64,000 nt of DNA from a virus. The stretch spans positions 1 through 64,000 of the IMG/VR virus record IMGVR_UViG_3300037247_001314. One strand, given 5' to 3'. This document shows, one piece after another, positions 390 through 63,854 of this stretch (its first letter is position 1; each line of letters opens with the position of its first letter). The notes under the pieces were generated by a model. The model had not been told where the DNA came from. It saw only the letters and a list, made by a program, of their open reading frames with translations, and made no database searches. The translations under genes were made by a program, and so were the position numbers.

Positions 390-434
390 GAATAGATTCT
401 CCTTGTGTCTGGAGGGCTAGCCTAGCGCAGGCGC

Positions 435-467
435 AAAAACAAAGGGGCCACATTTGGGGCCCCTTTG
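435..467 (-). terminator. Intrinsic terminator after the tail tube gene
   Basis: Minus strand CAAAGGGGCC-loop-GGCCCCTTTG followed by TTTTT. Confidence 0.7.
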
Positions 468-493
468 CTCGCACAGTTGTCTGGACGTCTGAA

Positions 494-940
494 TCAGATC
501 TCAAACTCGTCTCTCATCCGAATGCCGACGAAGTCAACGTCGATGCCGACAATGCCCGTCGCATCAATGGAGAAGTTTCTCGACGTCACCGCCGCTTGTT
601 CCAGCGTCATGATGCCGGCGCCGGTCTGGTTGTCCTCAATCGCCACCGTCAGGAGACCCTGCGTGATGACGTTGCTGAGGTGCTCTTCGGGGTTGCTACC
701 CAGCTTGGGGAAGTAGCCGAGGCTCTTGAGCGTGGTTCTGACGACGCGCACAAAGCCCATCGAGAAGTTGACGCGATACCGAGTCGGCACGTTCTCCTCG
801 ACTTGGATGTTGTCGAGGGCCTCCACAGGCTCGTACTGAATCTGCTCGCCGCCAGAACAGTTACGCGCATAGCCGACTTTCTTGCCGGCAATAAGCAGCC
901 TGGCGCGTGCGCCAGTGAAGACCAGTCCTTTTTCTGCCAT
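494..940 (-). CDS. Tail tube protein
   Basis: 148 aa directly after the sheath; VFTGARA...GKKVGYA...YEPVEALDNIQVEENVP pattern typical of Twort/SPO1-type tubes; AGGAG RBS. Confidence 0.8.
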   Translation of the reverse strand: MAEKGLVFTGARARLLIAGKKVGYARNCSGGEQIQYEPVEALDNIQVEENVPTRYRVNFSMGFVRVVRTTLKSLGYFPKLGSNPEEHLSNVITQGLLTVAIEDNQTGAGIMTLEQAAVTSRNFSIDATGIVGIDVDFVGIRMRDEFEI

Positions 941-970
941 GACTCACTCCTAAAGGTGGCCTGTCTGGAC

Positions 971-3301: not shown

Positions 3302-3311
3302 GACTTACTCC

Positions 3312-10556: not shown

Positions 10557-11138
10557 TCAGCGAGAATCGACTACCGCATTCACCCCGGTTACATCTGCGG
10601 CGTCATTCACGGATGTTTTGAGAGTTGTGCCAGCGTCGAGTGTCGCTCGCACGGCAGCAATGGCAGCAAGCGCAAAAGCGTGCACAGCAGCTGCGTCGGC
10701 GAGCGACACCGTGCCCGTGTCGTCGATGTTGTTCCAGACAACAGGATAAGCGAACGACGCATCATTCCGCATGTCGTCAGCTGCCATAATCTTCAACTGC
10801 GCGGGAAGGGACAGGCTGAAATAGTCACCGCTTGACGCTGGGTATTCAAAGCCAACAGCGATGAGTTCGTTGGTGCGCGCGTCGACTGCCTGGTTTTTAC
10901 TAGCCTTGCTCGTCGCCAGCACGCGAGCAGTGCTGGCTGCTTTGTATGTAGCAATCGTGGTGCCCAACAGCGCTTCGTCTGGGGCGGAAAGGTCTGTCGG
11001 CGTGGTGACGACGACAGCGGTGTCCGACATGCTCACCTTAAACAGAAGCGAAGGTAGGGCGCTTTGGATTGCAGCAGCTACGCCGACGTCTATGTCCCAG
11101 CGCGTGTCGAGGGCACGTGTGAAGTTGTAGTCGGTCAT
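10557..11138 (-). CDS. DUF4376-like tail-fibre-associated protein
   Basis: VDARTNELIAVGFEY...WNNIDDTGTVSL...TLKTSVNDA pattern. Confidence 0.6.
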   Translation of the reverse strand: MTDYNFTRALDTRWDIDVGVAAAIQSALPSLLFKVSMSDTAVVVTTPTDLSAPDEALLGTTIATYKAASTARVLATSKASKNQAVDARTNELIAVGFEYPASSGDYFSLSLPAQLKIMAADDMRNDASFAYPVVWNNIDDTGTVSLADAAAVHAFALAAIAAVRATLDAGTTLKTSVNDAADVTGVNAVVDSR

Positions 11139-12427
11139 AAAGTGTACTCGATCAGTAGTCCGTAATAGTGGATAACACCTCCCACGCTTACCTGACTCAC
11201 AAGGACACCACCTTGGTCGCCCGCAGCAAGTACACTTAGTACAGGCGTTATATCAATCTCAACAAATTTGTCGGTTAAGCCAGTGAAGTCAAACACTGTC
11301 GTCGTGTCGACCTCGCCGTGCTGATCTATCGACTCACCAGCAGCTACGTTGCCAAACTTTGAGGAAAGGTCGATGTTTTTACCAGAGCCGGCCGATGCAG
11401 AGGTTGGCTTGGCCACCAACACGGCTTTAGTTATCGCAGCTGCGAGTATTGGTACATAGAAGTTGAATCGAGCACTACCGGTAGATGGTATGCTAAGAGA
11501 ACGTCTATCCCCGTCATTGCCGTTGTAGTCGGCTTGAGCCCAAATGCAGCCACTATTCAACGCATCTAGAGCCGTTTTGTCTGCGGCAGACATGAAACCA
11601 TTAAGAGAGTCCGTAGCCACGGCGTGAAAGGTTACGCCAGTAAGGTCCCCGTGCCCGTGCACGTGGTCGCCGCGCGAGAGTAAAGCCGACGTGCCCGTAT
11701 CCGCTGTCCCGAGAGCTGCTGGCGTAGCGTCACTGCGCAAGAGCACCTCGACGGGATTGCCGCTCGCATTGCCGACCCAAAACTTATTCTCGGCGACGTT
11801 TGGTAATGCGTTCGAGCGCAACGCGCCACCGACGTAGACAATCCCGCTAGCGTCAACCTTCAGCACGGTTGCGATTTTTTGGATCTTTGTTGTGGCTCCT
11901 GTTGGCAGAGTGCTTATTAGCTCTCCGGGTGTTTTGGATACATAAAGATTGTCGCCAACAGCAAAACTGGAAGTGTCGATACCAGACAACTCGCCGCTAA
12001 CGCGCACGTCGCCACTGGCACTATTGGTAAAGGATTGCGCAGATATCCCGAGGGCAGGCAGCAAGGCCGGTTGGTCGGCGTCAGAAAGCTCGACGAGAAT
12101 CGTCGAATCACCGGCGTCGTACCCATCGATGAAGACGGTTTTACCTAGGGCAATAGTGCCCGCAGTTTTCTTCTTGCATTTGACCGTCGTGCTGTCGGTG
12201 GTGACCGACGACACTTGGCCCCACGTCGGTGCGGTGGTCAGAAGTATCCATATGCTGTTGTCGTCAGCCTGACGCGCAAACTTGTAGACGTCGTCAGCAG
12301 TAAGGGCGTCAGTGGGACCATCGCTGGGGGTATGGCTCCCGCGCGCGGAGGCGTCCGCGTACACCCAAGAGATGGGGCAGTGGATGCCGTCACTTGGTCG
12401 TTGGTCCTCGTGCCCCCCGCCACTCAT
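11135..12427 (-). CDS. Fibre/decoration-type virion protein
   Basis: GELSGIDTSSFAVGDNLYVS, SRGDHVH and GFMSAADKTALD fibre repeats. Confidence 0.6.
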   Translation of the reverse strand: MSGGGHEDQRPSDGIHCPISWVYADASARGSHTPSDGPTDALTADDVYKFARQADDNSIWILLTTAPTWGQVSSVTTDSTTVKCKKKTAGTIALGKTVFIDGYDAGDSTILVELSDADQPALLPALGISAQSFTNSASGDVRVSGELSGIDTSSFAVGDNLYVSKTPGELISTLPTGATTKIQKIATVLKVDASGIVYVGGALRSNALPNVAENKFWVGNASGNPVEVLLRSDATPAALGTADTGTSALLSRGDHVHGHGDLTGVTFHAVATDSLNGFMSAADKTALDALNSGCIWAQADYNGNDGDRRSLSIPSTGSARFNFYVPILAAAITKAVLVAKPTSASAGSGKNIDLSSKFGNVAAGESIDQHGEVDTTTVFDFTGLTDKFVEIDITPVLSVLAAGDQGGVLVSQVSVGGVIHYYGLLIEYTL

Positions 12428-12981
12428 GTTCGTGTCCCGTAAAGCAGTTCGCCTCGTCGATTAGTTAGCCACCCGCGACGTCCGACGATTGGTTGCGTCA
12501 GTTCAAATGATGAACCATCTCTGGAAAATAGAACCTGCCCGACCTCAGTCGGCACTGGTAGTGAAATAGTGATGGCCGCTCCGAGTTCTTCAAGTGCAGT
12601 CTGAAGGTTTGTTGCCGCGACGTTAGGAACAGACGAGGGATCGATGCCGACCTTGAGCGCGCCGCAGGGGTGTTTGAACTCGACGCTGCCGCCTGTGGAA
12701 TCGGGGAGCGCGGGCGTAGCCGTTAGCGTGTCGTTGCTTGGGACCGTGTCGACGACGTAGGTGCCGTCGCCCGCCGAGGCACCAGTGAGGACAAAAATAT
12801 CACCAGGCTCGACGGTCTCGTCGCCAATAGACAGGCCAAAATATGGCGCCGAGAGATTCATGGTCATCAGGCCAGACACAACATCTGTCACCGACGTGGT
12901 TTTGAACGAAACAGTGCCATCCGACGCCAGCTCAATGGCGTCGACGATTGCACCGTCCTCAATGTCCGTCTTATCAACCAC
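12424..12981 (-). CDS. Virion structural protein
   Basis: GDGTYVV beta motif and ATNLQTALEEL repeat. Confidence 0.5.
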   Translation of the reverse strand: MVDKTDIEDGAIVDAIELASDGTVSFKTTSVTDVVSGLMTMNLSAPYFGLSIGDETVEPGDIFVLTGASAGDGTYVVDTVPSNDTLTATPALPDSTGGSVEFKHPCGALKVGIDPSSVPNVAATNLQTALEELGAAITISLPVPTEVGQVLFSRDGSSFELTQPIVGRRGWLTNRRGELLYGTRT

Positions 12982-12984
12982 GAA

Positions 12985-13383
12985 CTACCTCTTAGTCTTG
13001 CTCGCCTTCTTCTTGGACGCCTTCTTCTTGGCGGCGGCTTCCTTTTTCTCTTCGGCTTTGTTCTCAGCCAGTTCTTTTTTCTTTTTGGCCTCTTTCTCGA
13101 TTTCTTGCTGCTCACGGATGAGCTGAGTGTTGATGGCGTTGAAGACTGTGGTGTGTAGGGACCTGAAGGCGCGAGCTTTGGCCTCGCTAGCGGCGGCTTG
13201 CTCCCGCATTGTGGCCGCAGCCGCTTCTTCTGCTTGTGCTTTAGATTCAAACTCGTTGAGCATCGTCATACCCAGCACATGAACCCTGCCACTGTTCTCG
13301 TCAAGCTTGAGGAGTTCGTTCGATACCCGTCGCACATTTACAACGGCTTCGGCGTGGTTCATTTCAGGTGTTGGATCGCTCAT
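12985..13383 (-). CDS. Hypothetical coiled-coil protein with a Lys-rich tail
   Basis: Start MSDPTP overlaps the upstream stop; KKKASKKKASKTKR tail. Confidence 0.55.
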   Translation of the reverse strand: MSDPTPEMNHAEAVVNVRRVSNELLKLDENSGRVHVLGMTMLNEFESKAQAEEAAAATMREQAAASEAKARAFRSLHTTVFNAINTQLIREQQEIEKEAKKKKELAENKAEEKKEAAAKKKASKKKASKTKR

Positions 13384-13631
13384 GGAGTAAGTCCGTTCGC
13401 AAGAGCAAAAGCCTGCCACTTTTCCGGCTGCTCTTTTTTTAGCTTCTTGGCGTGATTGGCAACGCGCATGCACGCTTCGCAGTAGACTTTGCCTTTACCC
13501 TCCTTTTCAGTAACGAGAAACCACCTCATGACCTTCTTGCCAATCATCAGCGGTGCGTGATGCCCGGAGGCGCAGAGGCGCCCTGGCGGCGCCTCTACGT
13601 TCTTCAGAGTCAGGTCAGCTGGAGCCTGCAT
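13380..13631 (-). CDS. Small Zn-finger-like protein
   Basis: CASGHH...YCEAC; abuts both neighbouring genes. Confidence 0.5.
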   Translation of the reverse strand: MQAPADLTLKNVEAPPGRLCASGHHAPLMIGKKVMRWFLVTEKEGKGKVYCEACMRVANHAKKLKKEQPEKWQAFALANGLTP

Positions 13632-15488
13632 TTACGCGTAGACAAGCCACTCAGCGATGTCGCCGACCTTGACTTTGTTGTAGACGGTGACTGTCGTTGA
13701 CGAGGTCTCGTCGTAATCATGGCCACCTTCGGTTCCATCACCCGGCGTGCGGAGTTCTTTGCGCCAAAAGAGGATGAGGTTCTGGCCGCTGTTGCTGTCA
13801 GGCGTGTACGTGCCGCTTGGGATCGTGAGAACGGCACCGACAGCCACCGCCACAGTCAGCACCTGGATGACGCGTGTGAAGTTCGAGCCGGCAACAGCGT
13901 CGGACAGCGCCTGTAGCGACGCCGTAATCGTCTCGCCATCGGTGAGGATGGCGCCAGTGTAATCCCGGTTTCCGATTTCGGTGTTGAGGACGTTGAGCGC
14001 TTCTACGACGTCGGGAGTAGCATCGGGGAGATCCGACCACGCAAAGAAGTTGGTCGTGGGTGTGAGGAGACCGCCAAGGTGTGTGACCCCGTCGGCAAGA
14101 AGGTCGCTGAGAACATCCTGTAGGTCGTTGATGCGCTGACTGAGACCAGCGTCGCCGACAAGGCCGTTAGCGAGACGGCGTCGAAGAGCAACATCACTCA
14201 TCGAGTCCATGCGCTCACGAAAACCGTAGACCATGTTCACCGACGTGGGCTGGTCACGTTCCCAAGTATACACGTTGGACACGGACAAAGCGGCGCCTGG
14301 CGCGACATGGAAGAACTGGACTTCGACCTCGTTGGGCTCGGTAGCGGACCCGGCAAAGGTGATGCCGTAGACGCGGTCGCCATAGTCAGCGTCGCCGCCA
14401 GCGAAATCGGAAACCAAGAAGCCGGCGTTGGCCACAGTTTCAGTGGCAACGGCTCCGGCTTGAACACCGGGGTTTGCGTGGGTGAAGTTGACCGTCGCAG
14501 CGCCGCCGCTAACGGCAGTCACCAGCAAGCTCGGAGCGGCAAGGATGGCTGCCACCAGAGCGTCGCGAATAAAGTCGGCGGTCTCCGTTCCCGTGTGGTC
14601 AACAGAACGAGAGAACTCTGTTTCCGCATGCGATCCGTCATCGTCAAAAACGAAGACGGTGGGCGTGTTGACCCCGTCGTCAATGGTAACGAAGTCGGTG
14701 TCGGCGCCGACTGCGAGTAGCGATGCAGCAACGGTGGTGAAGTCGCCGACTTCGCTGCCGAGCAACGTTAACGGCTGGCCAGTGGCGGGGTCGTAAATCT
14801 CGACGTAGCTGGCCTCAAAGACGCCAGCATCTGCGCCGTCCTGAATGGGGACACCCGTGCGATCGACAGCATCGGCGTGCGTTAAGTTGCCTGCATCGGA
14901 AAGCGTGACGAGGGTATCTCCCTCAGCCACGGCTTCACCTAGCGCCTCGCGGTCCGTGACCAGGGCTTTGGAGTCGAGGGAGATGAGGTTGGTCAGGCTC
15001 TTGTCGACGTTTGAACCGATAGCAGTCGGTCGCACGTACGTCGGGATGGCTGCATCAAACGCTACGCCCTTGATGTTGGCGCGGTCGCTGAGCGTGTAGT
15101 TAACGTTGTCTTCAAGCGAGTATCCCTGCCGCTCGGTCCAAGTGATGGAGCCGTTGTTGGCGTCGGGCGCCACAGCCGAGGCGTTAACCACGTCGACAGT
15201 GTTCGCGTCGATGTGGTTAACGATCAGGAACTCGCCGTTGTTGCCGCCGCTGGCTGCACCTGAAAGGCGCAAGAACTTATGGAGAGATTCGGCGGTCATA
15301 CCCGTGAGGCCGCTGATCCGTGCCTGGCCAGCAGGGGCGCCTGCGATGACGTTGGCAGCTACGCCTGTTTGACCAGTGATTGCAGCGCCGAGGAACAAGC
15401 TCTCTTCGCCATAAGGGAGGGCGCCACTCTGATTGAGGGACCCAGCGATATCGATCTGTTGGTCCAGAAGACCGGCAAGTGCACTCAT
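13632..15488 (-). CDS. Large virion structural protein
   Basis: 618 aa, acidic and Gly/Ala/Thr-rich; NNGEFLI and ITASLQALSDAV motifs; AGGAG RBS. Confidence 0.6.
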   Translation of the reverse strand: MSALAGLLDQQIDIAGSLNQSGALPYGEESLFLGAAITGQTGVAANVIAGAPAGQARISGLTGMTAESLHKFLRLSGAASGGNNGEFLIVNHIDANTVDVVNASAVAPDANNGSITWTERQGYSLEDNVNYTLSDRANIKGVAFDAAIPTYVRPTAIGSNVDKSLTNLISLDSKALVTDREALGEAVAEGDTLVTLSDAGNLTHADAVDRTGVPIQDGADAGVFEASYVEIYDPATGQPLTLLGSEVGDFTTVAASLLAVGADTDFVTIDDGVNTPTVFVFDDDGSHAETEFSRSVDHTGTETADFIRDALVAAILAAPSLLVTAVSGGAATVNFTHANPGVQAGAVATETVANAGFLVSDFAGGDADYGDRVYGITFAGSATEPNEVEVQFFHVAPGAALSVSNVYTWERDQPTSVNMVYGFRERMDSMSDVALRRRLANGLVGDAGLSQRINDLQDVLSDLLADGVTHLGGLLTPTTNFFAWSDLPDATPDVVEALNVLNTEIGNRDYTGAILTDGETITASLQALSDAVAGSNFTRVIQVLTVAVAVGAVLTIPSGTYTPDSNSGQNLILFWRKELRTPGDGTEGGHDYDETSSTTVTVYNKVKVGDIAEWLVYA

Positions 15489-15505
15489 TTTCTATCTCCT
15501 GGCCA

Positions 15506-15802
15506 TCAGGCCGCGTAATACGTGGCTCTCAAAACAGACCGCGCGTTCGGTGTGAACGAAAGTAGGGTCACCGTATCAAACCCACCCCCAGAATCCGAGA
15601 CGATGAAATCCCCAGGAGGCTGATTCGCCACAATGCCTTGGTCAAGGAGTCGACCGTTGTGGGACAAGGCGAGAGTGATTCCACCTGGAGTATGAAGAAA
15701 GGCCTCTGCTGTCTGGAAAATACGGGGGTCCCCCGTGGCTACCAGCGCTACACCAATGCGGAATGCGCTCGGGGGGATAGCACGACGCCGGACGAGCAGC
15801 AT
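15506..15802 (-). CDS. Small virion protein
   Basis: HNGRLLDQG...DFIVS...LRATY beta-domain. Confidence 0.5.
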   Translation of the reverse strand: MLLVRRRAIPPSAFRIGVALVATGDPRIFQTAEAFLHTPGGITLALSHNGRLLDQGIVANQPPGDFIVSDSGGGFDTVTLLSFTPNARSVLRATYYAA

Positions 15803-15805
15803 GGC

Positions 15806-16093
15806 TTACCCCTTGCGGTGCAACACCATGACGGTCACAGACGCAGTGCCTCCAACGCCCTTAAGCCAAACCTGGCTGTCCTCGATGGCCTCGGAGAAAT
15901 CTTCAGACGTCCCAATCTCCCAAAAGTTGGTGCCGGCGTCAAAATCGGCCTCGGTAAAGAAAAGGCGTACCGGGAAGGTAGCAGCGCGAATCTTTAGCCG
16001 CATCGAGAGCGCTTGAAACTTCCAGATGCGCCCCGTTGTGTCGATGTCGTCGGTAACTACGCGGGCAATGCCCCCACGAGACTGAAAACCCAT
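15806..16093 (-). CDS. Small virion protein
   Basis: GAGGAG RBS; beta-rich ORF. Confidence 0.5.
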   Translation of the reverse strand: MGFQSRGGIARVVTDDIDTTGRIWKFQALSMRLKIRAATFPVRLFFTEADFDAGTNFWEIGTSEDFSEAIEDSQVWLKGVGGTASVTVMVLHRKG

Positions 16094-16161
16094 GTGCGCT
16101 CTCCTCTAAGGCTTTGAACTCGGGGCTGCTAATCCCGAGCTCTGTGTCCAGACAGCGAAGC

Positions 16162-16509
16162 CTACTCCGCTGGCGCCTGGTCGATGAAGCGGCCAACAAC
16201 CAAAAGGTTGTGGACGTCGGTGTCCGCACCGACCAGCACATTGAAGCCGCTCTGGGTCTTGGTGCTCTCGTCGACGGTGCAGGCTTTGCCCTCCACCTGC
16301 GAAATGACGACGTAGTCGGTGTCCGCCATCTTTTTGAGGCCGAGAGCCTCAAGGTCGACGACGAGCGGAGCGGCACCGCTTTGAGTCACGAGCTTCGCCT
16401 GCATCCCCTGTCCGCCAACAGGGGAAGCCGTGACGTGGTCAATGCCCTGGTCAGCCATGACCGGGATGTGGGTGCTCATTTTCTTTGGTGATGCATCTGC
16501 TCCGGACAT
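16162..16509 (-). CDS. Head fibre/decoration-like protein
   Basis: MADTDYVV...KTQSGF...LLVVGR pattern; AGGAG RBS. Confidence 0.5.
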   Translation of the reverse strand: MSGADASPKKMSTHIPVMADQGIDHVTASPVGGQGMQAKLVTQSGAAPLVVDLEALGLKKMADTDYVVISQVEGKACTVDESTKTQSGFNVLVGADTDVHNLLVVGRFIDQAPAE

Positions 16510-16549
16510 ATCTTGCTCCTACGCCGTCTGGACGTTGTTGGTTGGTGGC

Positions 16550-17569
16550 CTAGTCCCCGTCGGGATACATCGCCTGCGCGATGCGTTCAACAAGGGTGGC
16601 CGCTCCGATGTTGGAAGCGTACTTCACCTCGTAGCCGTCGGCCATTTTCTTCAAAAACTCGATGGGCATGTCTGCATTGGGCTCGGGCCAGTTTCCAGAC
16701 GTCTCGAAGGTCTCCGTGGCAAATCCAGATTCGGCGAGCGTTGCCATGAGTTCCGTCTTGGCCGCCTCAGCTTCTTCCGCTTCCTTTGCAGCAGCAGCTT
16801 CTTCCGCTTCCTTGGCCGCCTGTGCCGCAACTTCAGCCACCGACTTCGGTGCGGGCTTGCCGTCACCAGTCGGGACGGGCGGAACGGCCCCGAGAGGGAG
16901 CAAGCCTGCGTCGGCGACACCCGCCATGAAGTCCGCAACGCCATGGTGCCCCTTGGGCTCCTCGCGCTCTTTGTCGAGGTTGTAGGCTGCCATGAGCAGG
17001 TCAGCTTCGGTAAGACCGAGTTCTTTCGCGAGGTCCTTGAGTACCTTCTTCGAGTAGCTGCCGAAGGGGCTGCTCATCTCGTCTTTGGTCTTGGGCTCTG
17101 GTTCCTTCTGCGGAACGGTGGCCTCGACGGCAGCCACCTCGCGGGCGAGCTGGGAGTGCTGGGGAGTTCCACCGCCAGGCTTGATGTCGGCGTTGCGGGC
17201 GATGTGCGCCGCACGCGCTTGGTTGAGGTGGTCTTGATTGAAGTTGTAGCCGTTCGCATGGCCCACCGACTTCAAAAGCTCAGAGAACGTTTGGCAGCCT
17301 TCGCACTGCTCCTGGATGGCGGGCTGAGCAGCCACGAGCGCTACGAACTCTTTGGCGCTGTTTAGCGAAGGTCTCGGGATGGTGGGGCGACCGCGCTTGT
17401 TTTGGTTTTTCGTCTGGAGGATCTGGTCAGTCCAGCCCGTGTTCAGGGCCTTGTTGAGGTTGGCCTCATCCTCGACCTCAATGCAGAGATTGTTGTCCAC
17501 GTCGTAATGCGTGTCGTTGATGAGGATGGACTTGCCCTTCATGTGAGCGGAGCGCGTCTGAAGCATCAT
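16550..17569 (-). CDS. Post-capsid protein with Nif11-like and C-terminal helix-extension-helix-like domains
   Basis: Start MMLQTRS; KEFVALVAAQPAIQEQ...GHANGYNFNQDHL; C-terminal LKKMADGYEVKY...TLVERI. Confidence 0.55.
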   Translation of the reverse strand: MMLQTRSAHMKGKSILINDTHYDVDNNLCIEVEDEANLNKALNTGWTDQILQTKNQNKRGRPTIPRPSLNSAKEFVALVAAQPAIQEQCEGCQTFSELLKSVGHANGYNFNQDHLNQARAAHIARNADIKPGGGTPQHSQLAREVAAVEATVPQKEPEPKTKDEMSSPFGSYSKKVLKDLAKELGLTEADLLMAAYNLDKEREEPKGHHGVADFMAGVADAGLLPLGAVPPVPTGDGKPAPKSVAEVAAQAAKEAEEAAAAKEAEEAEAAKTELMATLAESGFATETFETSGNWPEPNADMPIEFLKKMADGYEVKYASNIGAATLVERIAQAMYPDGD

Positions 17570-17602
17570 GATGTTTTCCCTTGTGAGTTTGAGGCTAGCC
17601 CC

Positions 17603-17646
17603 AAAGCAAAGGGGCGCGCGACCAAGCATAGGCCGTGCGCCCCTTC
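17603..17646 (-). terminator. Terminator after the major capsid gene
   Basis: AAGGGGCGCACGGCC-loop-GGTCGCGCGCCCCTT then TGCTTT. Confidence 0.6.
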
Positions 17647-17682
17647 TATTCCAGACGCCGCTTCCCTGCTAGGGGTTAGGCG

Positions 17683-19122
17683 TTAGGGCTGCCCCTTGAA
17701 GTTGGGGGCTCGACCGATGTTCCGGATGAGTACGGCCTTGCCCGGGGCATAGAGCACCGGAACTCCGTATACTAATTGCATCCAACGGATTGACGTCGAC
17801 ACGGTGGCCAGCGGCACCTTGAGGAATGGCGCCAACTGTTTCCAGCTGAGGCACTCAAGGTTCTGTTGCCAAAGGATGGCGATCGAGGTGAACGGCAAAC
17901 GATCGTTGACATCGTCGAAGGTGAACTCGCCCGCGCCAGCGGTGTTCGGGGTGCGAGCGATCTGCCGTTGTTTGCCAACAGCTCCGCCCTTTTTGGTGCG
18001 GTAGAGTTCGTACCACTTCACGCCGACGGCAGACCCGGGGGTCACACCGAACGTCATCTTGTCGCCTTCAGCAACGGCAATAGCACTGCCGTCGACAGCA
18101 ACGGCAACGCTACGGCCGAAGTCATTGTGCGCGGACACGCTGTAGAAGTAGGAACCTGCGTCTTCAGCGTCAAAGAGCGAGCCAGCGTCGGCCGGGGTTG
18201 TTGCGCCAGTCGAAATCGTTGGTGTCGCAGGACGCTGTGCGGCGTCGCCGGCCGCGGTAGCTTTCGGCGAACCGCCATCATTCACGAAAACATTCGGCTC
18301 AAAAAGCACATCGCCGGCCGGGCTGGTGAAGCCCTTGATATCGAGCCCAACCATCCCGTCCTTGCGCTTGTCCAGAAGGTCGTAGCGCCCCTTCGGGAAG
18401 AAGCTCTTGACGAGGTCAGCCTTAATCTTCGGATTGAGATGCAGGTGGGTCGGAATCCCGAAGTTCGGGTCGTCGCTGATGGTGAGCGCAGCGTCAATGA
18501 GGATGTCCTCGTCGAGCGGCTTACCACGCTGGTCGATGATGTTGTCAGCCGGCGCGTTGTCGGTGATGAGCTTCTCGTAGCCGTCAAACTGAATAGTCGA
18601 CAGCGAAGAGTCAGCGTAGAACAACGCACGCTCGACGATGCGCAAAAGCCACATCGTCCCCGCCACCGTTTCGTTTGCGATGACGTTGCCATGCGCCGGA
18701 CGAATCAAGCTCATCACGTGACTGACTGACCTGGTCGTGCCCAGGAACTTCACGGCCGCGTAGCGTCGAGCGAACGTAGAATCGTCCTCGGGAGGCAGCG
18801 CGCCCTCCGCGATGAAGCCCTCGATTCCTTCGCCGTAGCTCGAAATCTCGTTGTGCTCCTCGACGGTGTTGTACGCCGCGAGCTTGGGAATGGCCTTGAA
18901 CAGCCGGATGTGTTCCATCCGGTAGGTGACGTTCTTCAACGTCTGCTCGAGCGACTCAACGCGCAGAGGGAACCCCTGCCCCGGAGCAGCGCCCGGGTTG
19001 TTGATGTCGTTGCCCGCCGTGAGGGCCTTGTTCAGGTGGTCGAGGTCAGATTCCGAGAACGGATTTCCCGGCCCGAACCCGTCCACCCCGTCGTAGTCCT
19101 TCCAGGACACTTGGTCGATCAT
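17683..19122 (-). CDS. Major capsid protein (SPO1/Twort-like)
   Basis: LNKALTAG, LRVESLEQTLKNVT, KFLGTT, WKQLAPFLKVPLA, LVYGVPVLYAPGK...NIG; AAGGAG RBS. Confidence 0.93.
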   Translation of the reverse strand: MIDQVSWKDYDGVDGFGPGNPFSESDLDHLNKALTAGNDINNPGAAPGQGFPLRVESLEQTLKNVTYRMEHIRLFKAIPKLAAYNTVEEHNEISSYGEGIEGFIAEGALPPEDDSTFARRYAAVKFLGTTRSVSHVMSLIRPAHGNVIANETVAGTMWLLRIVERALFYADSSLSTIQFDGYEKLITDNAPADNIIDQRGKPLDEDILIDAALTISDDPNFGIPTHLHLNPKIKADLVKSFFPKGRYDLLDKRKDGMVGLDIKGFTSPAGDVLFEPNVFVNDGGSPKATAAGDAAQRPATPTISTGATTPADAGSLFDAEDAGSYFYSVSAHNDFGRSVAVAVDGSAIAVAEGDKMTFGVTPGSAVGVKWYELYRTKKGGAVGKQRQIARTPNTAGAGEFTFDDVNDRLPFTSIAILWQQNLECLSWKQLAPFLKVPLATVSTSIRWMQLVYGVPVLYAPGKAVLIRNIGRAPNFKGQP

Positions 19123-19209
19123 GATGGTCTCTCCTTAAAGAGGGTTGTCTGGACGATTGTCTGGACGATGCGAGCTCGCTGTCACCGAGCTCAAGGGTGA
19201 AGCAGTTGG

Positions 19210-19887
19210 CTAGGCCGCCTGCGGGGAACGTTGAGCTTTAGCGACCGCCATGACCTCTTGGGCAAGGCCCTTGGAGAGTTCAGTGGCAATCTCGTACTTC
19301 GCGATGGCGGTGGACATGTTTTCGCCACCCTTCGAGAACCCGCCGTTCTCCTGAGAAATCGTCTGCATGACGTCCAGGACTTCGCTCTTCGAGAGCTTGT
19401 TGGCCGCGGGAGGTTGGCCAGCGATTGGCCGCTCGACGGGAGCAGCAGGCCCGAGCCCTTTGCTGAGGACAGGACCCGCGGGTTGACCCGAGAGGGCCGC
19501 CACTTGGTCGGAAAGGCTCTTCACCATTTCGCCCATCTGGACGACGCTGGTGGCGAGAGCACAGCGGAACTGGTGCTCGCTGCCTTCGCCCTTTTCGATG
19601 CGATCGGCGAGAACAGTGAGGGCGTCGACGACACCAGCGTGCTGCTCCTTGATATAGGGGCTCACGTCGACGCTCTTCACCAAGGCCTCCGTCTGGAGCG
19701 GGGCGGTAGCTGCCGCTGCGAGTGTGCCCGAGCCGCCAAGGCTCTTGAGAAGCTCTTCGCGCTCCTCGGGAGTAGCAGTGCCGGCGTTGGCCTTTTCAAA
19801 AAGGGCCTTCGATCGAGCAGCCGGGTTGCTCGCCTCAGCCGCAGCGGTGAGGGCATCCAAGCCCGTCTGGAGTTGTGTTTGGTCCAT
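19210..19887 (-). CDS. Scaffold-like protein
   Basis: Between protease and capsid; start MDQTQ with GAGGAG RBS; many hxK[SG] sites. Confidence 0.6.
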   Translation of the reverse strand: MDQTQLQTGLDALTAAAEASNPAARSKALFEKANAGTATPEEREELLKSLGGSGTLAAAATAPLQTEALVKSVDVSPYIKEQHAGVVDALTVLADRIEKGEGSEHQFRCALATSVVQMGEMVKSLSDQVAALSGQPAGPVLSKGLGPAAPVERPIAGQPPAANKLSKSEVLDVMQTISQENGGFSKGGENMSTAIAKYEIATELSKGLAQEVMAVAKAQRSPQAA

Positions 19888-38513: not shown

Positions 38514-38566
38514 TCAGACTCCGAGCTGTAGTGTGGCCTGTTAGGCCCGGTGCTGTCGATTTCTGT

Positions 38567-40501: not shown

Positions 40502-40541
40502 CGACTAGGTTGCCGTGGTCCAGACAAAATGTCCAGACGAG

Positions 40542-47700: not shown

Positions 47701-48909
47701 TTAGATCTGAATAGTGACAGCGCGCTTCACTGGGCGGCGTTCCAGATAAGCGCTTATGAACGCCTGCGCTTGCGGAGCGACGATAGCGTTTCCGTAGGCG
47801 CACAATCGCCCCACGCGGTTGGCAACCCCATGAGCCAACGGGAATGTGCCGGGTTCAACTGGCCGGGCTTTTCCGTCGGTGCAGGGGATCCAGTCAGCGT
47901 CTCCCCAATAGCTCTCTCCGCGTCCAAGGCTAGACAAGCGCAACCGTGCTTCGTCCCGTGCTTGGCCTTCTGCGTTCGGCTGCGTCCTCTGGCGTCGTGC
48001 GCTTGCGGTGTCGTCCAGTGCGCGGCGTGCAACGCTGCCGCCTTCAGAGCCACCCCTCCTTGCCGTCCCGGGGGTATCTGTGGCCCCGTGCCGTCGTTCG
48101 CTCGGGGTGTGGGCCAATGGGCCCGCGTCGCTCTCGTCGGCAGATCGTCGTGTGTCGCTGACCGCTCTTTCCCAACTGACCTCGTCGATGCTCCCTTGTG
48201 GTCGGTGGCGTTCGGCGTCGGCCAAGTTGCCAGCTGCGCTTGTAGGTTGAGGCTGGTCAGCGACACACCCAGCTTGAATCCCTTCGCTATCGCCGCTCTT
48301 TTTCTCGCCAGGAACTGCTCCGGCGTGCCTCCCGCTTCGCGCGCTGCAGGCGTTGCCCATGGAGCCGCTTCTTCGACCGATAGGTTGATGTTGCCGTTTG
48401 CCACGCTCGTCGTGGGCAGACCAATAGAGTCGTTTCCTTTGGTGCGGGGCACCGAAACCACAAGCCGCGGTAACTGCCGCCCCGACGGTGTATCCGCCAC
48501 TTTCCAGGTCTGTCGATACAAGGTCGAGCCAAGTTTCGCCTGGCTTACCCGCAACCTGTTCGCCAAAGATGTTGTGAGGAGCGCACTGCTCAATGAGCCA
48601 GAACCAGGAGGGCCAGAGGTGCCGCTCGTCAGCAAACCCCGCTCCTTTGCCTGCCGCGCTGAAAGGTTGGCAAGGACAACTTCCAGTCCAGACGGGACGG
48701 TCATCGGGCCAACCCGCGTTTCTGAGCGCCAAGCTCCAGACACCTATTCCCGCGAAGAAGTGACATTGTGTGTATCCTTTCAGCTCCGATGGAGTGACAT
48801 CCTCAATGCTCCGCTCATCGACGTCACCAGGTGCGATATGTCCTGCAGCAATAAGATTGCGGAGCCATTGCGCAGCGTAAAGGTCAATCTCGTTGTAGTA
48901 CGCGACCAC
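47701..48909 (-). CDS. C5-cytosine DNA methyltransferase, alpha polypeptide (motifs I-VIII and X)
   Basis: [36 protein letters not shown]. Confidence 0.9.
47754..48743 (-). CDS. Methyltransferase beta polypeptide in an overlapping frame (TRD-like repeats plus motif IX); true start uncertain
   Basis: [32 protein letters not shown]; [13 protein letters not shown] (motif IX-like); architecture as in M.EcoHK31I. Confidence 0.7.
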
Positions 48910-51148: not shown

Positions 51149-51177
51149 CTTATTTTCCAGACGTTGGGGGTTGCCCC

Positions 51178-51217
51178 ACGATACACAGCGGGCAATGTGC
51201 CGTCAAGACATTTGTCT
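51178..51217 (-). promoter_or_regulatory. Repeated early promoter, copy 4
   Basis: AGACAAATGTC-TTGACG-17 nt-TATCGT. Confidence 0.75.
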
Positions 51218-51669: not shown

Positions 51670-51753
51670 ATGCTCTGCTCCTGGGTGCCCAGTGTGGGCG
51701 AGGTTTGCGCCTTGTGTACCTGTCTGGACGCGGTGTCAAGGGCTCTGTCGCAT

Positions 51754-52323
51754 TTAGTCCGGCTCGATAAGCTTCTGACCATCCGGCACGGTCGCCTGTG
51801 CCCACCACGCGGGAAGCCGCATGCGCAGCGGGCTCACGGTGCGCGGCTGCCAAGGTCTGGACCACGAGCGTGGATCCACCTCGGTGTTGGTCCACCAAAT
51901 AGGTTGTCCTGGCGCGCAGCCGACGAGATAGCTGTGCCCCATGGGCCCGATGATGTTGAGGTGGCCTACGACGGCAGTGCCATGCTTCCGCAGAGCTTTG
52001 ACCATTGCTATCCCGCCCGACCCATGCATCGTCGAGCAGCAGCGCAACCAGAGCAGCCTGACGTGCTTCCAGCGCTTGTCACTGCGAGGCAAGACCTGTT
52101 TGCCGATGAACGCTTGGCCCGGCGAGCCATGCCCCCAGAAATGGAGCTCAACGTCGCTGCCGATCTCGCGACATTTGTTGAGGACGTCGTACCAGGACGT
52201 CGCTGCTACGACGTGGTCAAAGCGCCAACCAAAGAGAGCTGCGCCAATAATCCAAGTGCGCGCAACGCTGAAGAATGGTGCGGGGGTTGCGTCGTAGGCG
52301 AGGATGCGAACGGGTTTGGACAT
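51754..52323 (-). CDS. DUF4347/caspase-fold-like protein
   Basis: LHFWGHGSPG and LWLRCCST (possible His-Cys dyad). Confidence 0.5.
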   Translation of the reverse strand: MSKPVRILAYDATPAPFFSVARTWIIGAALFGWRFDHVVAATSWYDVLNKCREIGSDVELHFWGHGSPGQAFIGKQVLPRSDKRWKHVRLLWLRCCSTMHGSGGIAMVKALRKHGTAVVGHLNIIGPMGHSYLVGCAPGQPIWWTNTEVDPRSWSRPWQPRTVSPLRMRLPAWWAQATVPDGQKLIEPD

Positions 52324-52372: not shown

Positions 52373-54058
52373 TCAGGCTGCCAGCTTTTGCATAGCGCAT
52401 CGAATGTGATGGGGTAGGTGCGCGAGGGGTCGGCGGACGTCAAAGCCCGAGGCCACAGCGATATCGCGCAGGAGCGCCCCCATCGAGACTGCGTCCCGCT
52501 CAGCGTGATTCTTGTCCGCTTTGCTGTTGCTGGCCTCTGCCTGCGCTGAAGTGCAATGTGACCGCGCGCTTGCGAGGTCGGTCTTTAGCTTTTCGATTTG
52601 AGTCATGGCTTGCCCCCTTCTCTGCGGTTAGATGTCCAGACGAGTATATCGGTTCGGTCAACATCGTGCGGGCAACGCGAGACATGTCTCCCATTTCAAA
52701 CGCCGCAACGCGCACGCTGTTAGACACCGGCGCACCTTCCAGACAGTTTTCGATTCGTTTCGCTTGGTCGCAAAGTGCATCGAGCACGACGCCAAGACGC
52801 TTTAGTCGCACCGCTGGGTCTTCGGGGAAATGCTGCGGGCCGTCCTCGAGCTTGGTCTCGTAGCCCATGCACGTGCCGCAACCTGGCTCAAAACAATACA
52901 GAGTATGGTGGACGATACGGTAGAGTTCTTTCTCCCGCTTCGACAGCTGCGTTGGTGTCCGGCCCTGCTTCTTCTTTGCCATCCCAACAACCGTAGGCAT
53001 ATCTCCAGACAGACGTCCAGACCGGCCAGGCTATTCGGTAGGGATTTCGCCGTCTTCGTCCGGTCGATCGAGGCAGTTGAACGTCTTGTCGGAGAGCACA
53101 CCGTTCTCGCTGGCAATGGGATTGTGGGCTTGCGCCGTCGCCGCTTTGCGCTTCTTTGGGCGCGGCTTGGGGGATGGGGCTTCGGGCGCATCGAGTTCTT
53201 CCAGACGTTTTTCCAGATGGTCGCCCACCTCGCTGATGAGCCCGATAGTTCGTTCTAGCGCGTGCTTGGTGCCCTTCCCGCCACGGATGAAAAGCTCAAC
53301 ACCAACCTTGCCCCCAACGATGAGCCCGTCGAAAAGCTTGTCCACTAGCGGATGTTCTTCGGTCTTTTTGTCGTCGTCAATCATCACTATCAAGTGTCCC
53401 TTCAATGTTTTGGGCCTCCTCCCAAGTGTCGGCGAGCCCCCTGAGAGTTTTAGGGAGGGAGGCCATGTCACACTCAACGGCGGGCAGAAGCCCGCTAGAC
53501 GTGGTCAACTGAATCGTCACCGGTCGTGGGTCTCTTGCGAGTTTGACTTCCTCGTCACTCGGCATCGTCACCGCCGCTCAGTTCAGCGCTCACCATGCCG
53601 CCAAAGGTTATTTTCTTTCCGCTCGCGTCATACGCATGCTCAATGATGCGCTTACCGGGGATGGCCACAAGACCGCCGCGCTTCGCTGCACCTTCGTACT
53701 GGGGAGCGGCCTCGTGTCCCGTGACGAGAGGGCCACCGTTGGCTAGCTGCGTAAGCTTATCATCCGTCACCGCCACCCCAGTGACGGGCGTAGCCTCGTC
53801 GCACTCCTCTTTGGTGAGCACGCGGTTGAGGTATTCCTCTGCGATGCCGATGTGGCTCACCTCCATACCGAAAGATTCACCGTCTGGACGAATGCCGAGC
53901 TCCTCAACGCGCTCCTCAGCTTGGCGCACGTTGCCGGCCTGCACGATGACCACGCCGCGGAATACGTCGTTGTCCATGTAGCTCAGCCACCACAGCTGTG
54001 CGCCGGTGACGTAGCCCGCTGCCGGTTTGTCGCTACCAACGTCGATCGTTTTAGCCAT
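52373..54058 (-). other. Small hypothetical early genes
   Basis: Coupled minus-strand ORFs (52373-52606, 52500-53000, 53031-53384, 53377-53571, 53555-54058). Confidence 0.45.
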
Positions 54059-60143: not shown

Positions 60144-60776
60144 TTAGGCATTCGTCAGCTCGCCGACGTCGTCAAACACAACGGGGATACGACTCCGAAA
60201 CTCGGCCAGCATAGGGCGCGTTATTTCGCGAAGCTGTGGGTGAGCTGTGTCGGGTGTGCGCATCTTGAAAAAGTGCCGCCACTCGCGCAAGTTCGCGGTC
60301 ATCACGATTTCGGTCTTGAGGCTGTTGGGCAAGACCGAACGAGCCATCTGTGGGCTGGCACCTGCATCGAGCATCTGGAAGTAAATCGACTCCGCAAACA
60401 ACACCCCCGCCCGCCAGGCCTCAAATGTCACCTCGTCCACATGTGGTCGCGGATCGATGACGGTGATTTCCCGACCGAACTTGTTCTTGGTGTAGTTGCA
60501 GTAGCGCGTCGACTCCTGCGAGTAGGACGCAAGACGATGACGCACAATCTCGTGAGAGATGCCGCGGTCGCAGATGATCCGCACGCTCGCGGACTCATGT
60601 TCGATGACCGTCTCGTGGCCGCGCTTGAGCACCATGGCCACAAACTTCTGCGAACTGTCATCCGTGATTTTGTCCTCGGACTTGTAACAAGTTCGCCCAG
60701 CCAGCTCGATGCGACGCAGCATCTCGTAGCCGTTGATAAGTGACACAATCTCGTAGGATGACTTAACGATTTTCAT
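60144..60776 (-). CDS. thyX: Flavin-dependent thymidylate synthase
   Basis: GHETVIEH, RHRLASYSQESTRY, NLREWRHFF, AHPQLRE. Confidence 0.95.
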   Translation of the reverse strand: MKIVKSSYEIVSLINGYEMLRRIELAGRTCYKSEDKITDDSSQKFVAMVLKRGHETVIEHESASVRIICDRGISHEIVRHRLASYSQESTRYCNYTKNKFGREITVIDPRPHVDEVTFEAWRAGVLFAESIYFQMLDAGASPQMARSVLPNSLKTEIVMTANLREWRHFFKMRTPDTAHPQLREITRPMLAEFRSRIPVVFDDVGELTNA

Positions 60777-62071
60777 GATTCTGGTTCCTTGTCGTCGAGG
60801 ACGTACGCAACAGCTGCAAGACGCGTAGCAGTGGTTGTGCCCTCGGGGTTGCAATGAGCGAGCGTGCTCAAGACGATAGCCTCGTCATGTTTGCGCGCAA
60901 GGCCATCGGTGCTCGCTTCCTCTATTTTCGCCACGATCGCGTCAATCTTTTCGCGACACTCATCTGCGTCCCTCCAACAGGCTCGTACACGAGAGTGGTG
61001 GCTGTAGCCTTCGCGGGCCAGCGATCTCAGTTTTGGAAGCAGCTCTCGAACGCGAGCCAGTTGAGCAGCGAGCTCAGCGTGCGCGTCACCAAGAGCAGAG
61101 ACAAGGTTCGCAGGATCGCGAGCCTGGTCGTCGAAAGGAACGCCGAGGTGTTCCTCCACGCTCTGCCGAAGTGCCAGCACCACCTCGTCCTCTTGGGGCA
61201 CATCACCCCACTCTGTGCGACGCGTGAAGCTCGGCTGTGAATGGATTTCGTCGTCTAGAGCATATTGCGCCATTGTCACCAAAGCGCACGCTGCACAGAA
61301 CTCAGTAGCGTCTCCACACCAAACGACTGTAACTTTCGCTTCGTCTGGACAATCTTCACATTTAGCCATCGTTATTTCCTTTCAGGCCCAACGTGGAAGT
61401 CGCAATCGCCAGCTTCGTCTGGACAGTCTTCCCCCGAAGTGCATTTGGATTTGTAGCCGGACGTGCAGCCCGGATCGATTTCGTCGCAAGGCGCGAGGTC
61501 GGAAAGCAGACAAGCGCACTCCCCGTCCCTGTAGAGGCCGTCGAAGCCGTTAGCCTTGAGGTACGCGCCAGCCATCCCAACGACAGTTAGCGCTTTCGGT
61601 TTCTTGTCACCGTTGGCTGGCGCGTACTTGGCCAACTTCTTCGCCAGGTTCACGGATATCTTCCGCTGAGCGTCGAGGTCAGCGAGAGCCTGCGTCAGTC
61701 GCTCTAGGGTGGTGCTCACGTCTCCCCCTTGGGCTTGTCGACGTCAGCTCTGAGGTCGACATTGACCGACGCCGTGGGGGTGGGCACCCTGAGCGTGACC
61801 TTGCCTCGCAGCTCCTTGCCCGGCATCCAAAAAACGCCTTGAAAACCGTCAATCTCACCTTGCGAAACCAAAAGGGCGAGACTTTTGAGCCACTCGGCGA
61901 CTTGACCGCGCTCGAGGTGAGCGCGGTCAAAGGTGGTGCCGGGGGGTACGTCAATATTAGGCACCCACGTCTGGGGCTTGCCCTGTACTTCTCGCGAAAC
62001 ACGGCAAGCCTCAGTCATCGCCATGCGCAGCGAGCTATCGATGTGGGAAATGGATTCTTCGTTGTCGTCGG

Positions 62072-62572
62072 TCATACTTTTTCTTTCTTAGCCTTCTTGG
62101 TCTCAGCGCCAAATGGCCTACGCACGATGCGCTCTTTAGCGTTGAAATGTTTGCAGCCCTCGTAGGGGCAGGTGGACTGACTGTTAGGAAACGACGAGCA
62201 CATCCGCGGTCGGTCCTCGTAGTCCAGACAGTTGCGTGTCTCGCCATCGAAATACTTGCAGGTGAAGAAGTTCACGCGAATGTCGTCGCGGTCATCCTGG
62301 CGCTGCGGGTGTATTGGGTTCCGCTTGTGCTTACCAAGGGGGATGAGCATGTCGGCAGCCTTCTGGACGTCGCGCCAACGCTCGTGCGCTCTCTCCCACG
62401 TTCCATCGCAGGGGTAGTCGTTCCACGTCGGCTCTACTTCCTCGCGCGCCATTTTCTTGAGGGTAGTCAGCGAGAACGCCGCGCAACAATAGCCTTTGCA
62501 GCTGTTGGTCTTCGCCACCGTTTTGGGTGCAGACAGCTTTGGCAGCGAGTTCAGATTTGAAACTTTAACCAT
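62072..62572 (-). CDS. YkgJ-like Cys-cluster protein
   Basis: CKGYCC..CKYFD..CLDYEDRPRMCSSFP. Confidence 0.75.
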   Translation of the reverse strand: MVKVSNLNSLPKLSAPKTVAKTNSCKGYCCAAFSLTTLKKMAREEVEPTWNDYPCDGTWERAHERWRDVQKAADMLIPLGKHKRNPIHPQRQDDRDDIRVNFFTCKYFDGETRNCLDYEDRPRMCSSFPNSQSTCPYEGCKHFNAKERIVRRPFGAETKKAKKEKV

Positions 62573-63377
62573 TGAGGTGCTCCCGTGCGCGAGCTAGCCA
62601 CTCAGTGGTGTTGACCGACCGCTGTGTGAATGCGCTGGTTACGCGGTCACCTGCTTTGTGTTCCAGGAGGAACACAGCGTCGTCGACGATAGATCGACTG
62701 GTCGTGTCTTTTGCGCGCAAGCTCTTGACGTACTCGCGCACCGCGTTCTCCTTGCAGCCGTCGACCTTTTCGAGCGCAGCGAGCCACTCGTCGAATCTGT
62801 CGTCAGTCATCGGGGGCATAGTCCGCGAGCCTCCGCGAGTAGCTGTTCAAGCACGCACTCGCGTTGTAGTGATTCCAGAATCGCTTTGGCGTCTTTGCGC
62901 CGCAGTGGGAAGCCGTCGCCGTTGTCCCAACCGGCTTTCGCGACGCCGCCAATGAACTCGACGAGAGTGTTGACGGCGACGTGGGTAGACTCATACCCCT
63001 GCAGCGCGAAAGCTCGTCGATTGAAATCGCATTTCTTCCACGTCGACGGGGTAGCCCATTCTTCAATGCGGAGGGTCTTGATGGTGTCCGCCTGTCTATC
63101 GATGCCGACGACGCGGCATTGCTGAGCCCAACGGTCAATGAGCAGCTGCCCAATGCGAGCAACTTTGAAGGTGAGGATGTCGCCGATGTGTAAGCTCACA
63201 CACGTCTCCGCTCGTCGTAGTCGTTGCGTTTGCGGAACTCGCGCACGGCCGTGTCAGCTTCGCACGCCGCCTGCGCGCACCCGGAACAGGTAACCACCTC
63301 AGCATAGACGCGCGTCCACAGCTGGCGCTCGTGGTCGTTCTTAAACTCTTCCAGTTGGTGCATCTGGACCTCCTACC

Positions 63378-63854
63378 CTAGACAACACTGGAGGTGTCTG
63401 GAGTGCAACCTCTTTTCTTTCGTCGGCGTGACATTTCTCGATGACCCCGCGGAGACAGGCTCACCCACGTGTGCCCTTCCTTGCGCACCACCGTTAGCCG
63501 CCCCGCTTCCTCAGCGCTCTTCACGTGGGCTGAAGCTGTCGACTGGGGCATGTCTAGGCCGTCGCGAATGTCCTGCAGCCTGAGCGTGCTCGCGCCCACG
63601 TAGAGCATGAGAACGAAGTGCCTGATGGGGATGAGGTCAGAGCGCGATGTGGGCATCGTCTGGAAGATGCTGCGGGCGAGCTCGCGGTCAGCGCGTCGCG
63701 GGCGGCACGCTGGGATGTGTCGGCGTTTGCGGGCCGCGTAGATCGCCTGCACCGAGACGTCCAGACGGGTGGCCAGCACCTGGTCCGGCACTTCCCCTAG
63801 AGGTTGCTCGTCCCACGCGACGCCACGAGGGGCAGATGTGCCACTTTTAGCCAT
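63378..63854 (-). CDS. HTH plus MarR-like wHTH transcription regulator
   Basis: Start MAKSGT with GGAGG RBS; LGEVPDQVLATRLDVS; IRDGLDMPQSTASAHV..VSLSPRG. Confidence 0.65.
   Translation of the reverse strand: MAKSGTSAPRGVAWDEQPLGEVPDQVLATRLDVSVQAIYAARKRRHIPACRPRRADRELARSIFQTMPTSRSDLIPIRHFVLMLYVGASTLRLQDIRDGLDMPQSTASAHVKSAEEAGRLTVVRKEGHTWVSLSPRGHREMSRRRKKRGCTPDTSSVV

Follow-up and report, generated by a model that had tools for sequence, protein, structure and literature searches.

An asymmetric seven-base word iterated through an uncultured phage genome, and its apparent dialects in related phages

RESULTS

A seven-base word recurs throughout the phage genome

We analysed the first 64,000 nucleotides (the window) of the IMG/VR virus record IMGVR_UViG_3300037247_001314, together with the remainder of that record, a single contig of 106,804 bp without N that represents an uncultured phage and is estimated to be 99% complete (genome G000 hereafter). 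Its gene set, as identified with Pfam, includes PolA, primase, DnaB, RecA, SbcCD, ThyX, HU, an ADP-ribosylglycohydrolase, a C5-methylase and a D12 adenine methylase. Our own open reading frame (ORF) caller returned 124 genes and placed 120 on the minus strand, with about 91% of the genome coding; a preliminary description of the window had all genes facing one way. The feature that concerns us here is the short non-palindromic word TCCAGAC, which reads GTCTGGA on the opposite strand.

407..63766, both strands: word array, 129 sites in the window, part of 204 in the genome; exact search with a synonymous-shuffle control

The preliminary description had put the window's content at about 130 copies of this word, found in both orientations and mostly followed by A or G, with about 8 expected and hence an enrichment of roughly 15-fold. 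An exact search bears this out, returning 129 copies (67 on the plus strand and 62 on the minus strand) that include all ten of the sites given as examples (407, 479, 963, 1730, 3197, 3227, 19147, 35455, 53004 and 63760), where dinucleotide-preserving shuffles gave 8.7 ± 3.3 copies and at most 19. The whole genome holds 204 copies (103 plus, 101 minus) against about 14–16 expected, which corresponds to one copy per 524 bp (about 1.9 per kb) and makes TCCAGAC/GTCTGGA the top-ranked 7-mer of the genome by frequency. The 3′ flanking base (+8) is A or G at 122 of the 129 window sites and at 191 of 204 genome-wide, and the 5′ flanking base (−1) is G or T at 154 of the 204; adding one base per side, the sequence logo thus gives the extended form K-TCCAGAC-R. 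Single-base variants of the word are near chance (3–22 copies each) save at the last position, where TCCAGAT occurs 45 times and TCCAGAA 37 times.

The possibility raised beforehand that the word is an assembly artefact was ruled out because independent metagenome contigs bear the same word, with 197 copies in the relative G001 and 47 copies within 14.4 kb of G003. The motif had also been thought undescribed in phages, and our literature search agrees: nothing relevant was found for the word, or for its relatives TTCCGGAA and TTCCAGAA (see below) in connection with phages.

The enrichment is independent of coding content

Most copies lie within genes, with 169 of the 204 sites (83%) falling wholly inside coding sequence, where they occupy sense frames 1 and 2 and antisense frames 0, 1 and 2. 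These form five frame/orientation reading classes (xPD, [VFIL]QT, [RCG]L[DE], xSG and VW), matching the different frames (PD, SG, VW, QT and LD) listed in the preliminary description. That description had named codon-preserving shuffles as a test, and under them the enrichment persists: when synonymous codons were shuffled within each gene, keeping proteins and codon usage intact, 33.0 ± 5.0 copies (maximum 48) were obtained compared with the 169 real ones, and permutation of codon order left 15.1 ± 4.0. Because the real count exceeds the synonymous level, which in turn exceeds the permuted level, codon choice and, about two-fold, peptide choice are both bent towards the word, and the two kinds of shuffle rule out an artefact of coding or codon usage. 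Among peptide contexts able to hold the word synonymously, 168 of 439 do so, a share that reaches 77–79% in two frames. The codons that the word brings in are the least used of their families (CCA 0.18, TCT 0.11 and GGA 0.10), as had been claimed, and the copies noted between genes number 35 of the 204, lying in the 9.6% of the genome that is non-coding at about twice the density found in genes (p = 5e-4). TCCAGAC is a DNA-level signal imposed on coding sequence, as first proposed by analogy with the cyanobacterial highly iterated palindrome HIP1 and with uptake sequences; the proposal is supported by these shuffles and by the seven-base conservation footprint, orientation balance and true iterated palindromes of relatives described below.

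Word sites are conserved beyond their surroundings

The closest relative that we found, G001, is a syntenic genome of 110,147 bp with terminal repeats, whose large terminase subunit (TerL) is 83% identical to that of G000. The two genomes align over 51 kb at 73% DNA identity. Within ungapped alignment, 48 of 90 G000 sites (53%) are exact in G001, compared with a background retention of 13% for all 7-mers and, likewise, 13% for 7-mers of the same composition. Per-base identity is 0.76–0.91 over the seven bases of the word and falls to about 0.71 over the 20 bases that flank it on each side. The remaining half of the sites has turned over, often by 2–5 changes, and the total stays at about 200. 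Where a site departs from the word by one base, the change tends to lie at position 1 or 7, both in the G000 variant counts and at orthologous sites, where 8 of 10 one-off G000/G001 differences fall at position 1 or 7. Taken together, the alignment indicates that selection on the DNA keeps the sites.

Orientation, spacing and local arrangement of the sites

The word shows the lack of Chi-like polarity that had been described for the window. Sense and antisense copies are balanced in G000 (101:103) and in the relatives G001 (94:103), G006 (98:100) and G013 (101:106), and regional skew is weak or absent (cumulative-skew permutation p = 0.04, 0.02, 0.94 and 0.15, respectively); an origin-type strand switch, as for a primase or lagging-strand word, was not found consistently across these four genomes. 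This near-exact balance therefore speaks for reading on double-stranded DNA and against signals linked to transcription, to an origin or to fixed ends. Regular spacing or phasing was likewise not seen, the distances between sites being Poisson-like (coefficient of variation 1.08) and the number of short pairs as expected. At 12–13 bp, three same-orientation pairs stand in spacers just upstream of genes, where simple arithmetic from site density predicts about 0.4:

19147..19165, minus strand: tandem direct pair at 12-bp spacing (19147/19159), intergenic, 25–43 nt upstream of the start codon of a 479-aa structural gene (17683–19122)
40519..40538, plus strand: tandem direct pair at 13-bp spacing (40519/40532), immediately upstream of the gene for the large terminase (38567–40501), within a short spacer
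53004..53022, plus strand: tandem direct pair at 12-bp spacing (53004/53016), in the spacer upstream of the gene at 52500–53000

A promoter, terminator or RNA-level signal was rejected: the word is found both ways round although transcription runs one way, and its intergenic copies (16 sense, 19 antisense) follow no orientation rule. We did observe that several intergenic copies lie in or just downstream of sigma-70-like hexamers (TTGACA-N17-TAnnnT), for example at 51156–51217 and 51722–51783 of the window, and that others directly follow terminator hairpins, 10–25 nt before ribosome-binding sites, again with no evident rule of orientation.

Word density is similar for core, lineage-specific and unique genes, at 1.5–2.5 per kb (core 1.7, unique 1.5). 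The largest gap between sites is the following.

10740..15710, no strand: word-free island of 4,978 bp; the 95th percentile of simulated gaps is 4,278 bp

The island carries four genes, three of them without a homologue in any relative and two of lower GC (0.53–0.57), and its 618-aa protein found no relatives among viral contigs. It is likely that the island is recently acquired DNA that has yet to take up the word, and it is probably a tail or host-range module. Comparable islands lie at 14793–19348 and 36035–40292 in G001.

Related words occur across the phage clade

A profile search with TerL yielded 36 viral loci, mostly from phages of 100–110 kb, and ten further genomes were analysed in whole or in part. 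No cultured relative was found: megablast gave no matches, and the best TerL match, at 30% identity, was to Bacteroides phages. The words most over-represented in these genomes are listed below.

G003: TCCAGAC-T, 47 copies in 14.4 kb
G002: TTTCCAGA, 54 copies in 45.8 kb
G006 and G013: TTCCAGAA(A), 135–148 copies
G011: ATCCAGAAA, weaker
G007: TCCAGC[T/A]
G009: the palindrome TCCGGA, 319 sites
G010: TCCGGA, 364 sites in 110 kb, 155 of them TTCCGGAA
Some other loci: GAGCTC, CTCGAG or CGATCG
G008 and G012 (GC 32–33%): no word

The words of G001–G003, G006, G007, G009–G011 and G013 all survive synonymous shuffles; in G010, for instance, TCCGGA is present 333 times compared with 58 ± 7, and wordless G008 is flat. 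On a TerL tree built with FastTree, words of the form TCC[A/G]G span a deep inner clade, in which G000 groups with locus L002 (G001), then with L003 (TTTCCAGA) and then with L043 (TTCCGGAA), and the AT-rich wordless members are nested inside it. The TCC[A/G]G core persists across phages with 50–67% GC and 45–60% TerL identity. TCCAGA differs from TCCGGA by one transition, and in orthologous genes the positions at which G010 and G009 have TCCGGA are those at which other lineages have TCCAGA 10–30 times more often than background. Most of these coincidences involve peptide contexts that either word can encode without change (xPD/E, SG), and nine are Arg/Gln replacements, in which the word is kept at the cost of the residue. 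These comparisons place TCCAGAC in a family of words that share the core TCC[A/G]G and evolve across the clade, a family which is new in this analysis and which the preliminary description had missed.

Beside these abundant words, we observed that certain hexamers (TCCGGA, CTCGAG, GAGCTC and CGATCG) are purged, with 0 copies where 20–150 are expected, in some genomes and yet hyper-abundant in their cousins. In a survey that covered G001, G002, G005–G007, G009, G010 and G013 (loci L008–L022 and L061–L095), TCCGGA was at 0 in G001, G002, G005 and G007, and CTCGAG and GAGCTC were at 0 in most genomes; G000 itself has 7 TCCGGA sites compared with 19 expected. Because total purges and hyper-abundance both occur among cousins, a given hexamer is bimodal in the clade, either absent or iterated. 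Within G010 (loci L067–L072) a second over-represented word, GCCCAGG(T), accompanies TTCCGGAA with 268 copies compared with 56 expected. This genome also encodes a dCTP deaminase, a dUTPase and a dATP/dGTP diphosphohydrolase N-domain protein, a gene set that hints at unusual nucleotide metabolism.

The word is not enriched in candidate hosts

TerL relatives were found on contigs binned into metagenome-assembled genomes (MAGs) of Gemmatimonadaceae (two), Lentisphaeria and Deltaproteobacteria. In these four MAGs TCCAGAM occurs at 0.15–0.45 per kb and exceeds the reversed-word control by a factor of no more than about 1.5. One of the four holds a phage contig of the TTCCAGAA type, and in 401 genomes of that MAG's family TCCAGAC occurs at about 0.1 per kb, compared with 1.9 in the phage, with none standing out; eight of the 401 are unpublished (G406, G211, G261, G158, G038, G309, G222 and G092), and the outcome is the same without them. 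Because neither the MAGs nor the family genomes show enrichment, a host-wide word is less likely, on the evidence of four MAGs with contigs of related phages and of the family of one of them. As hints to the host we also sought tRNAs in G000 and found none.

Phage methylases do not follow the word

G000 encodes two DNA methylases, of which the first lies in the window.

47701..48909, minus strand: C5-cytosine DNA methyltransferase, with motifs I, IV (PCQ), VI and VIII present

The C5-methylase (PF00145) is shared by G000 and G001 alone, 15 relatives having yielded no copy; searches of the Protein Atlas with it returned generic methylase clusters only. The D12 methylase (PF02086), whose G000 copy lies at 72786–73634 of the genome, is confined to G000–G002, and no Pfam methylase was found among the non-core or lineage-specific proteins of the word-rich genomes G010 and G006. 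Methylase presence thus does not co-vary with the word across relatives, and this distribution weakens the earlier suggestion that the word is a site for the phage's own methylase. Because neither methylase family is shared by the other word-bearing relatives, their gene content indicates that a phage methylase is not the common cause of the word. The C5-methylase may instead cover another sequence: no genomes but G000 and G001 have GAGCTC at a normal or higher frequency, most relatives having 0, and because the two carriers of the enzyme alone keep GAGCTC at normal levels, this suggests that the enzyme is a protective methylase for GAGCTC (SacI-type) and not for the word. It was judged unlikely as a writer or reader of the word. 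As a separate observation, GATC is depleted in G000 (186 compared with about 430 expected) despite the D12 adenine methylase. Elsewhere in the genome, a superfamily-2 helicase (ResIII/DEAD/Helicase_C) at 95602–98202, minus strand (L024:13602–16202), is interrupted by an intein (Intein_splicing, Hint_2).

DISCUSSION

A candidate array of recognition sites

The reading that we favour, tentatively, is that the phage carries a reader of double-stranded DNA for which the copies of TCCAGAC serve as recognition sites, a dense array maintained by selection. Selection on the DNA itself would hold about one site per 520 bp, each contributing a small benefit and paid for in rare codons and some amino-acid choices. 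The reader would be a phage protein that binds or modifies DNA at a specific sequence, and the array may mark, coat or organise phage DNA, for example in protection, compaction, or replication and recombination. TCCAGAC would then be the local dialect of a TCC[A/G]G family inherited in phages of about 100–110 kb, whose dialects would shift by single-base steps among TCCAGAC, TTCCAGAA, TTTCCAGA, TCCAGC and the palindromic TCCGGA/TTCCGGAA. That a protein reads the word, that the phage encodes this protein, and what the array is for are three things that we infer.

We looked for the reader by screening 14 genomes with BLASTP followed by HMM clustering, and one protein emerged as a weak candidate.

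Genome 89472–90770, outside the window: DUF2924 protein, weak candidate reader; core gene of the replication module, between primase and PolA

The protein is present in all complete relatives and combines four invariant cysteines and a winged-helix domain with a disordered middle that is acidic and Lys/Ala-rich (histone-H1-like) and a C-terminal DUF2924 domain. Both folded domains were modelled at a pLDDT above 90. In the model, the C-terminal domain weakly resembles the folds of DNA-binding domains (MPND, Z 5.1; the CcrM C-terminal domain, Z 4.9; SAND, Z 3.6), and the N-terminal domain matches sigma region 4 and winged helix-turn-helix regulators (Z 3–4.4). A Foldseek search of the model against the PDB gave nothing at E ≤ 0.001, a profile search of PDB sequences gave low-complexity matches only, and a search of the literature on DUF2924 found nothing relevant. 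Copies of the word lie upstream of the gene, 2 in 300 bp in G000 and 3 in 79 bp in G006. We regard the predicted protein as a weak lead for the reader and not as a finding. As for the gene itself, in G008 (98852–99763) and G012 (65796–66731), at loci L100 and L105, the DUF2924-like domain is in another reading frame than the N-terminal part, both frames being open, which could reflect a frameshift (programmed or not) or an overlapping gene; our ORF caller also split the gene in G001, for which the protein database holds a 343-aa product.

Several results weigh against a phage-borne reader. The 14-genome screen found no gene family that is present in all word-bearing genomes and missing from the wordless AT-rich ones. 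The DUF2924 protein occurs also in the wordless G008 and G012, and the Z values of its fold matches are too low to show kinship. Lastly, close relatives differ in their word, which would also suit differing hosts.

Alternative explanations

It is possible, if rather unlikely, that the word is instead read by a host factor, the phage having accumulated a Chi-like, uptake-like, nucleoid-protein or defence signal of its host that shields or benefits phage DNA, in which case dialects would track hosts; for example, at circularly permuted ends the word might make a RecBCD/AddAB-type nuclease stop degrading and promote recombination. Such an origin would suit the change of word between fairly close relatives, its absence from AT-rich members that presumably live on other hosts, and the failure of any phage gene to co-vary with it. 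Both orientations everywhere are also what a headful-packaged, permuted genome would need of a polar signal, and the phage has its own RecA and SbcCD. The four MAGs and the 401 genomes of one family, however, are without enrichment, and the TCC[A/G]G core persists over the range of GC content and TerL divergence given above. Nor would a host factor readily account for the 5-kb island of apparently recent DNA that lacks the word, or for the absence of polarity towards ends or an origin.

A methylation-linked repair drive seems improbable to us. This is the model proposed for HIP1 (Elhai 2015, PMC4390886), in which a methyltransferase of phage or host marks the core of the word and methyl-dependent mismatch correction converts near-cognate sequences into it, abundance being a by-product of biased repair with no benefit needed at each site. 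In its favour, relatives are dense in restriction-type palindromes (364 and 319 sites of TCCGGA in two genomes; CTCGAG, GAGCTC and CGATCG elsewhere), which resemble alternate highly iterated palindromes (PMC4390886), one-base departures from the word are commonest at its two ends, in agreement with Elhai's report on HIP1, and G000 encodes two DNA methylases. The same methylases argue the other way when the clade is considered, PF00145 being restricted to two genomes and the D12 family to three, with no Pfam methylase among the non-core proteins of G010 and G006; moreover, no member of the Vsr, MutS, MutL or MutH families was seen in G000, and many sites not shared by G000 and G001 differ by 2–5 bases. 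A T-to-C drive at a single position cannot yield a 15-fold enrichment, and a Vsr-type drive of this kind was rejected since the T variants show no specific depletion beyond a general scarcity of CTAG.

We think it very improbable that TCCAGA/TCTGGA is a hard-wired stand-in for methylated TC(5mC)GGA, in which the thymine methyl sits where the methyl of 5-methylcytosine would and one widespread reader of a methyl-marked TCCGGA word, a word hyper-abundant in this clade, serves both. Were this so, lineages that lost the methylase, or that met an enzyme cutting TCCGGA, would have rewritten an epigenetic mark into sequence, which would explain the one-transition relation of the two words, their equal orientations, the purge of TCCGGA in TCCAGA genomes and the missing methylase in most. 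Hardest of all to credit is that the word is a decaying, functionless fossil of an ancestral TCCGGA purged under restriction via CpG-to-CpA/TpG transitions: a single transition from TCCGGA to TCCAGA would give equal orientations, TCCGGA is absent from G001, G002 and G007 and depleted in G000, and the two words coincide far above background, Arg/Gln replacements included, but the sites are under present constraint, a conservation footprint that largely refutes a relic, the flanks are asymmetric (C at +7 and R at +8, but G/T equally at −1) unlike those of a palindrome's fossil, the TerL tree has the TCCAGA type as the more widespread state with the TCCGGA of L043 looking derived, and most coincident sites are in contexts where both words are synonymous. 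The remaining probability we leave to causes not considered here.

Comparison with known genome-wide words

HIP1 is the cyanobacterial palindrome GCGATCGC, in place of which some lineages carry alternate highly iterated palindromes (Elhai 2015, PMC4390886). Like HIP1, the phage word is short, occurs once per about 0.3–1 kb, lies within genes in all frames and is replaced by others in some lineages; one-base deviations from both are biased to outer positions. The relatives G009 and G010 moreover share with HIP1 true iterated palindromes (TCCGGA, TTCCGGAA). Unlike HIP1, TCCAGAC is non-palindromic, is found in a phage and not in a cellular chromosome, and has neither a clade-wide cognate methylase nor a GATC-type inner site. 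A genome with a HIP-type word is expected to encode a methyltransferase that recognises the word or its core (Elhai 2015, PMC4390886); G000 has two methylases, and neither family is common to the other word-bearing relatives.

The DNA uptake sequences (DUS) of Neisseriaceae and uptake signal sequences (USS) of Pasteurellaceae, which coexist with the proteomes of their bearers (PMC2817400), resemble the phage word in being non-palindromic, present in both orientations at about one per kb, and fitted into genes via tolerant peptides and codon choice. They also form lineage-specific dialects with a shared core. DUS and USS belong to the chromosomes of competent bacteria, where a pilin or uptake receptor reads them and recombination biased by uptake spreads them; the phage word, in contrast, is found in a lytic-type phage, is absent from the candidate hosts examined and forms no inverted-pair terminators.

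The stoperators of Cluster A mycobacteriophages are 13–14 bp long and number 24–36 per genome; most lie between genes, and they follow the direction of transcription. Like the phage word they are asymmetric and repeated over a phage genome, and they are read by one phage DNA-binding protein; some copies of the phage word, too, lie just upstream of genes, three times as tandem pairs. The phage word differs in comprising 204 copies of a 7–9-mer, 83% of them inside genes, with no orientation rule. Chi is likewise short, asymmetric and over-represented, and it lets a processive enzyme recognise DNA as own, but it is a strongly replication-polarised feature of host chromosomes, whereas the phage word is balanced at 101:103 and is not enriched in candidate hosts. 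We class the phage word with HIP1 and the uptake sequences in kind, and as new in being phage-borne, asymmetric and part of a single-base dialect family.

Very few systems are known in which selection maintains a DNA word genome-wide (HIP1, uptake sequences and Chi), and the function of HIP1 has stayed unknown after decades. Here such words appear in a whole phage clade, in genomes of about 120 genes, with single-base dialects and with wordless relatives that serve as natural controls, and these small genomes narrow the search for a reader to about a hundred proteins. The same restriction-type hexamer may be purged in one phage and hyper-abundant in its cousin; because hexamers are purged or iterated among cousins in this way, the word statistics of phages tell of more than restriction avoidance.

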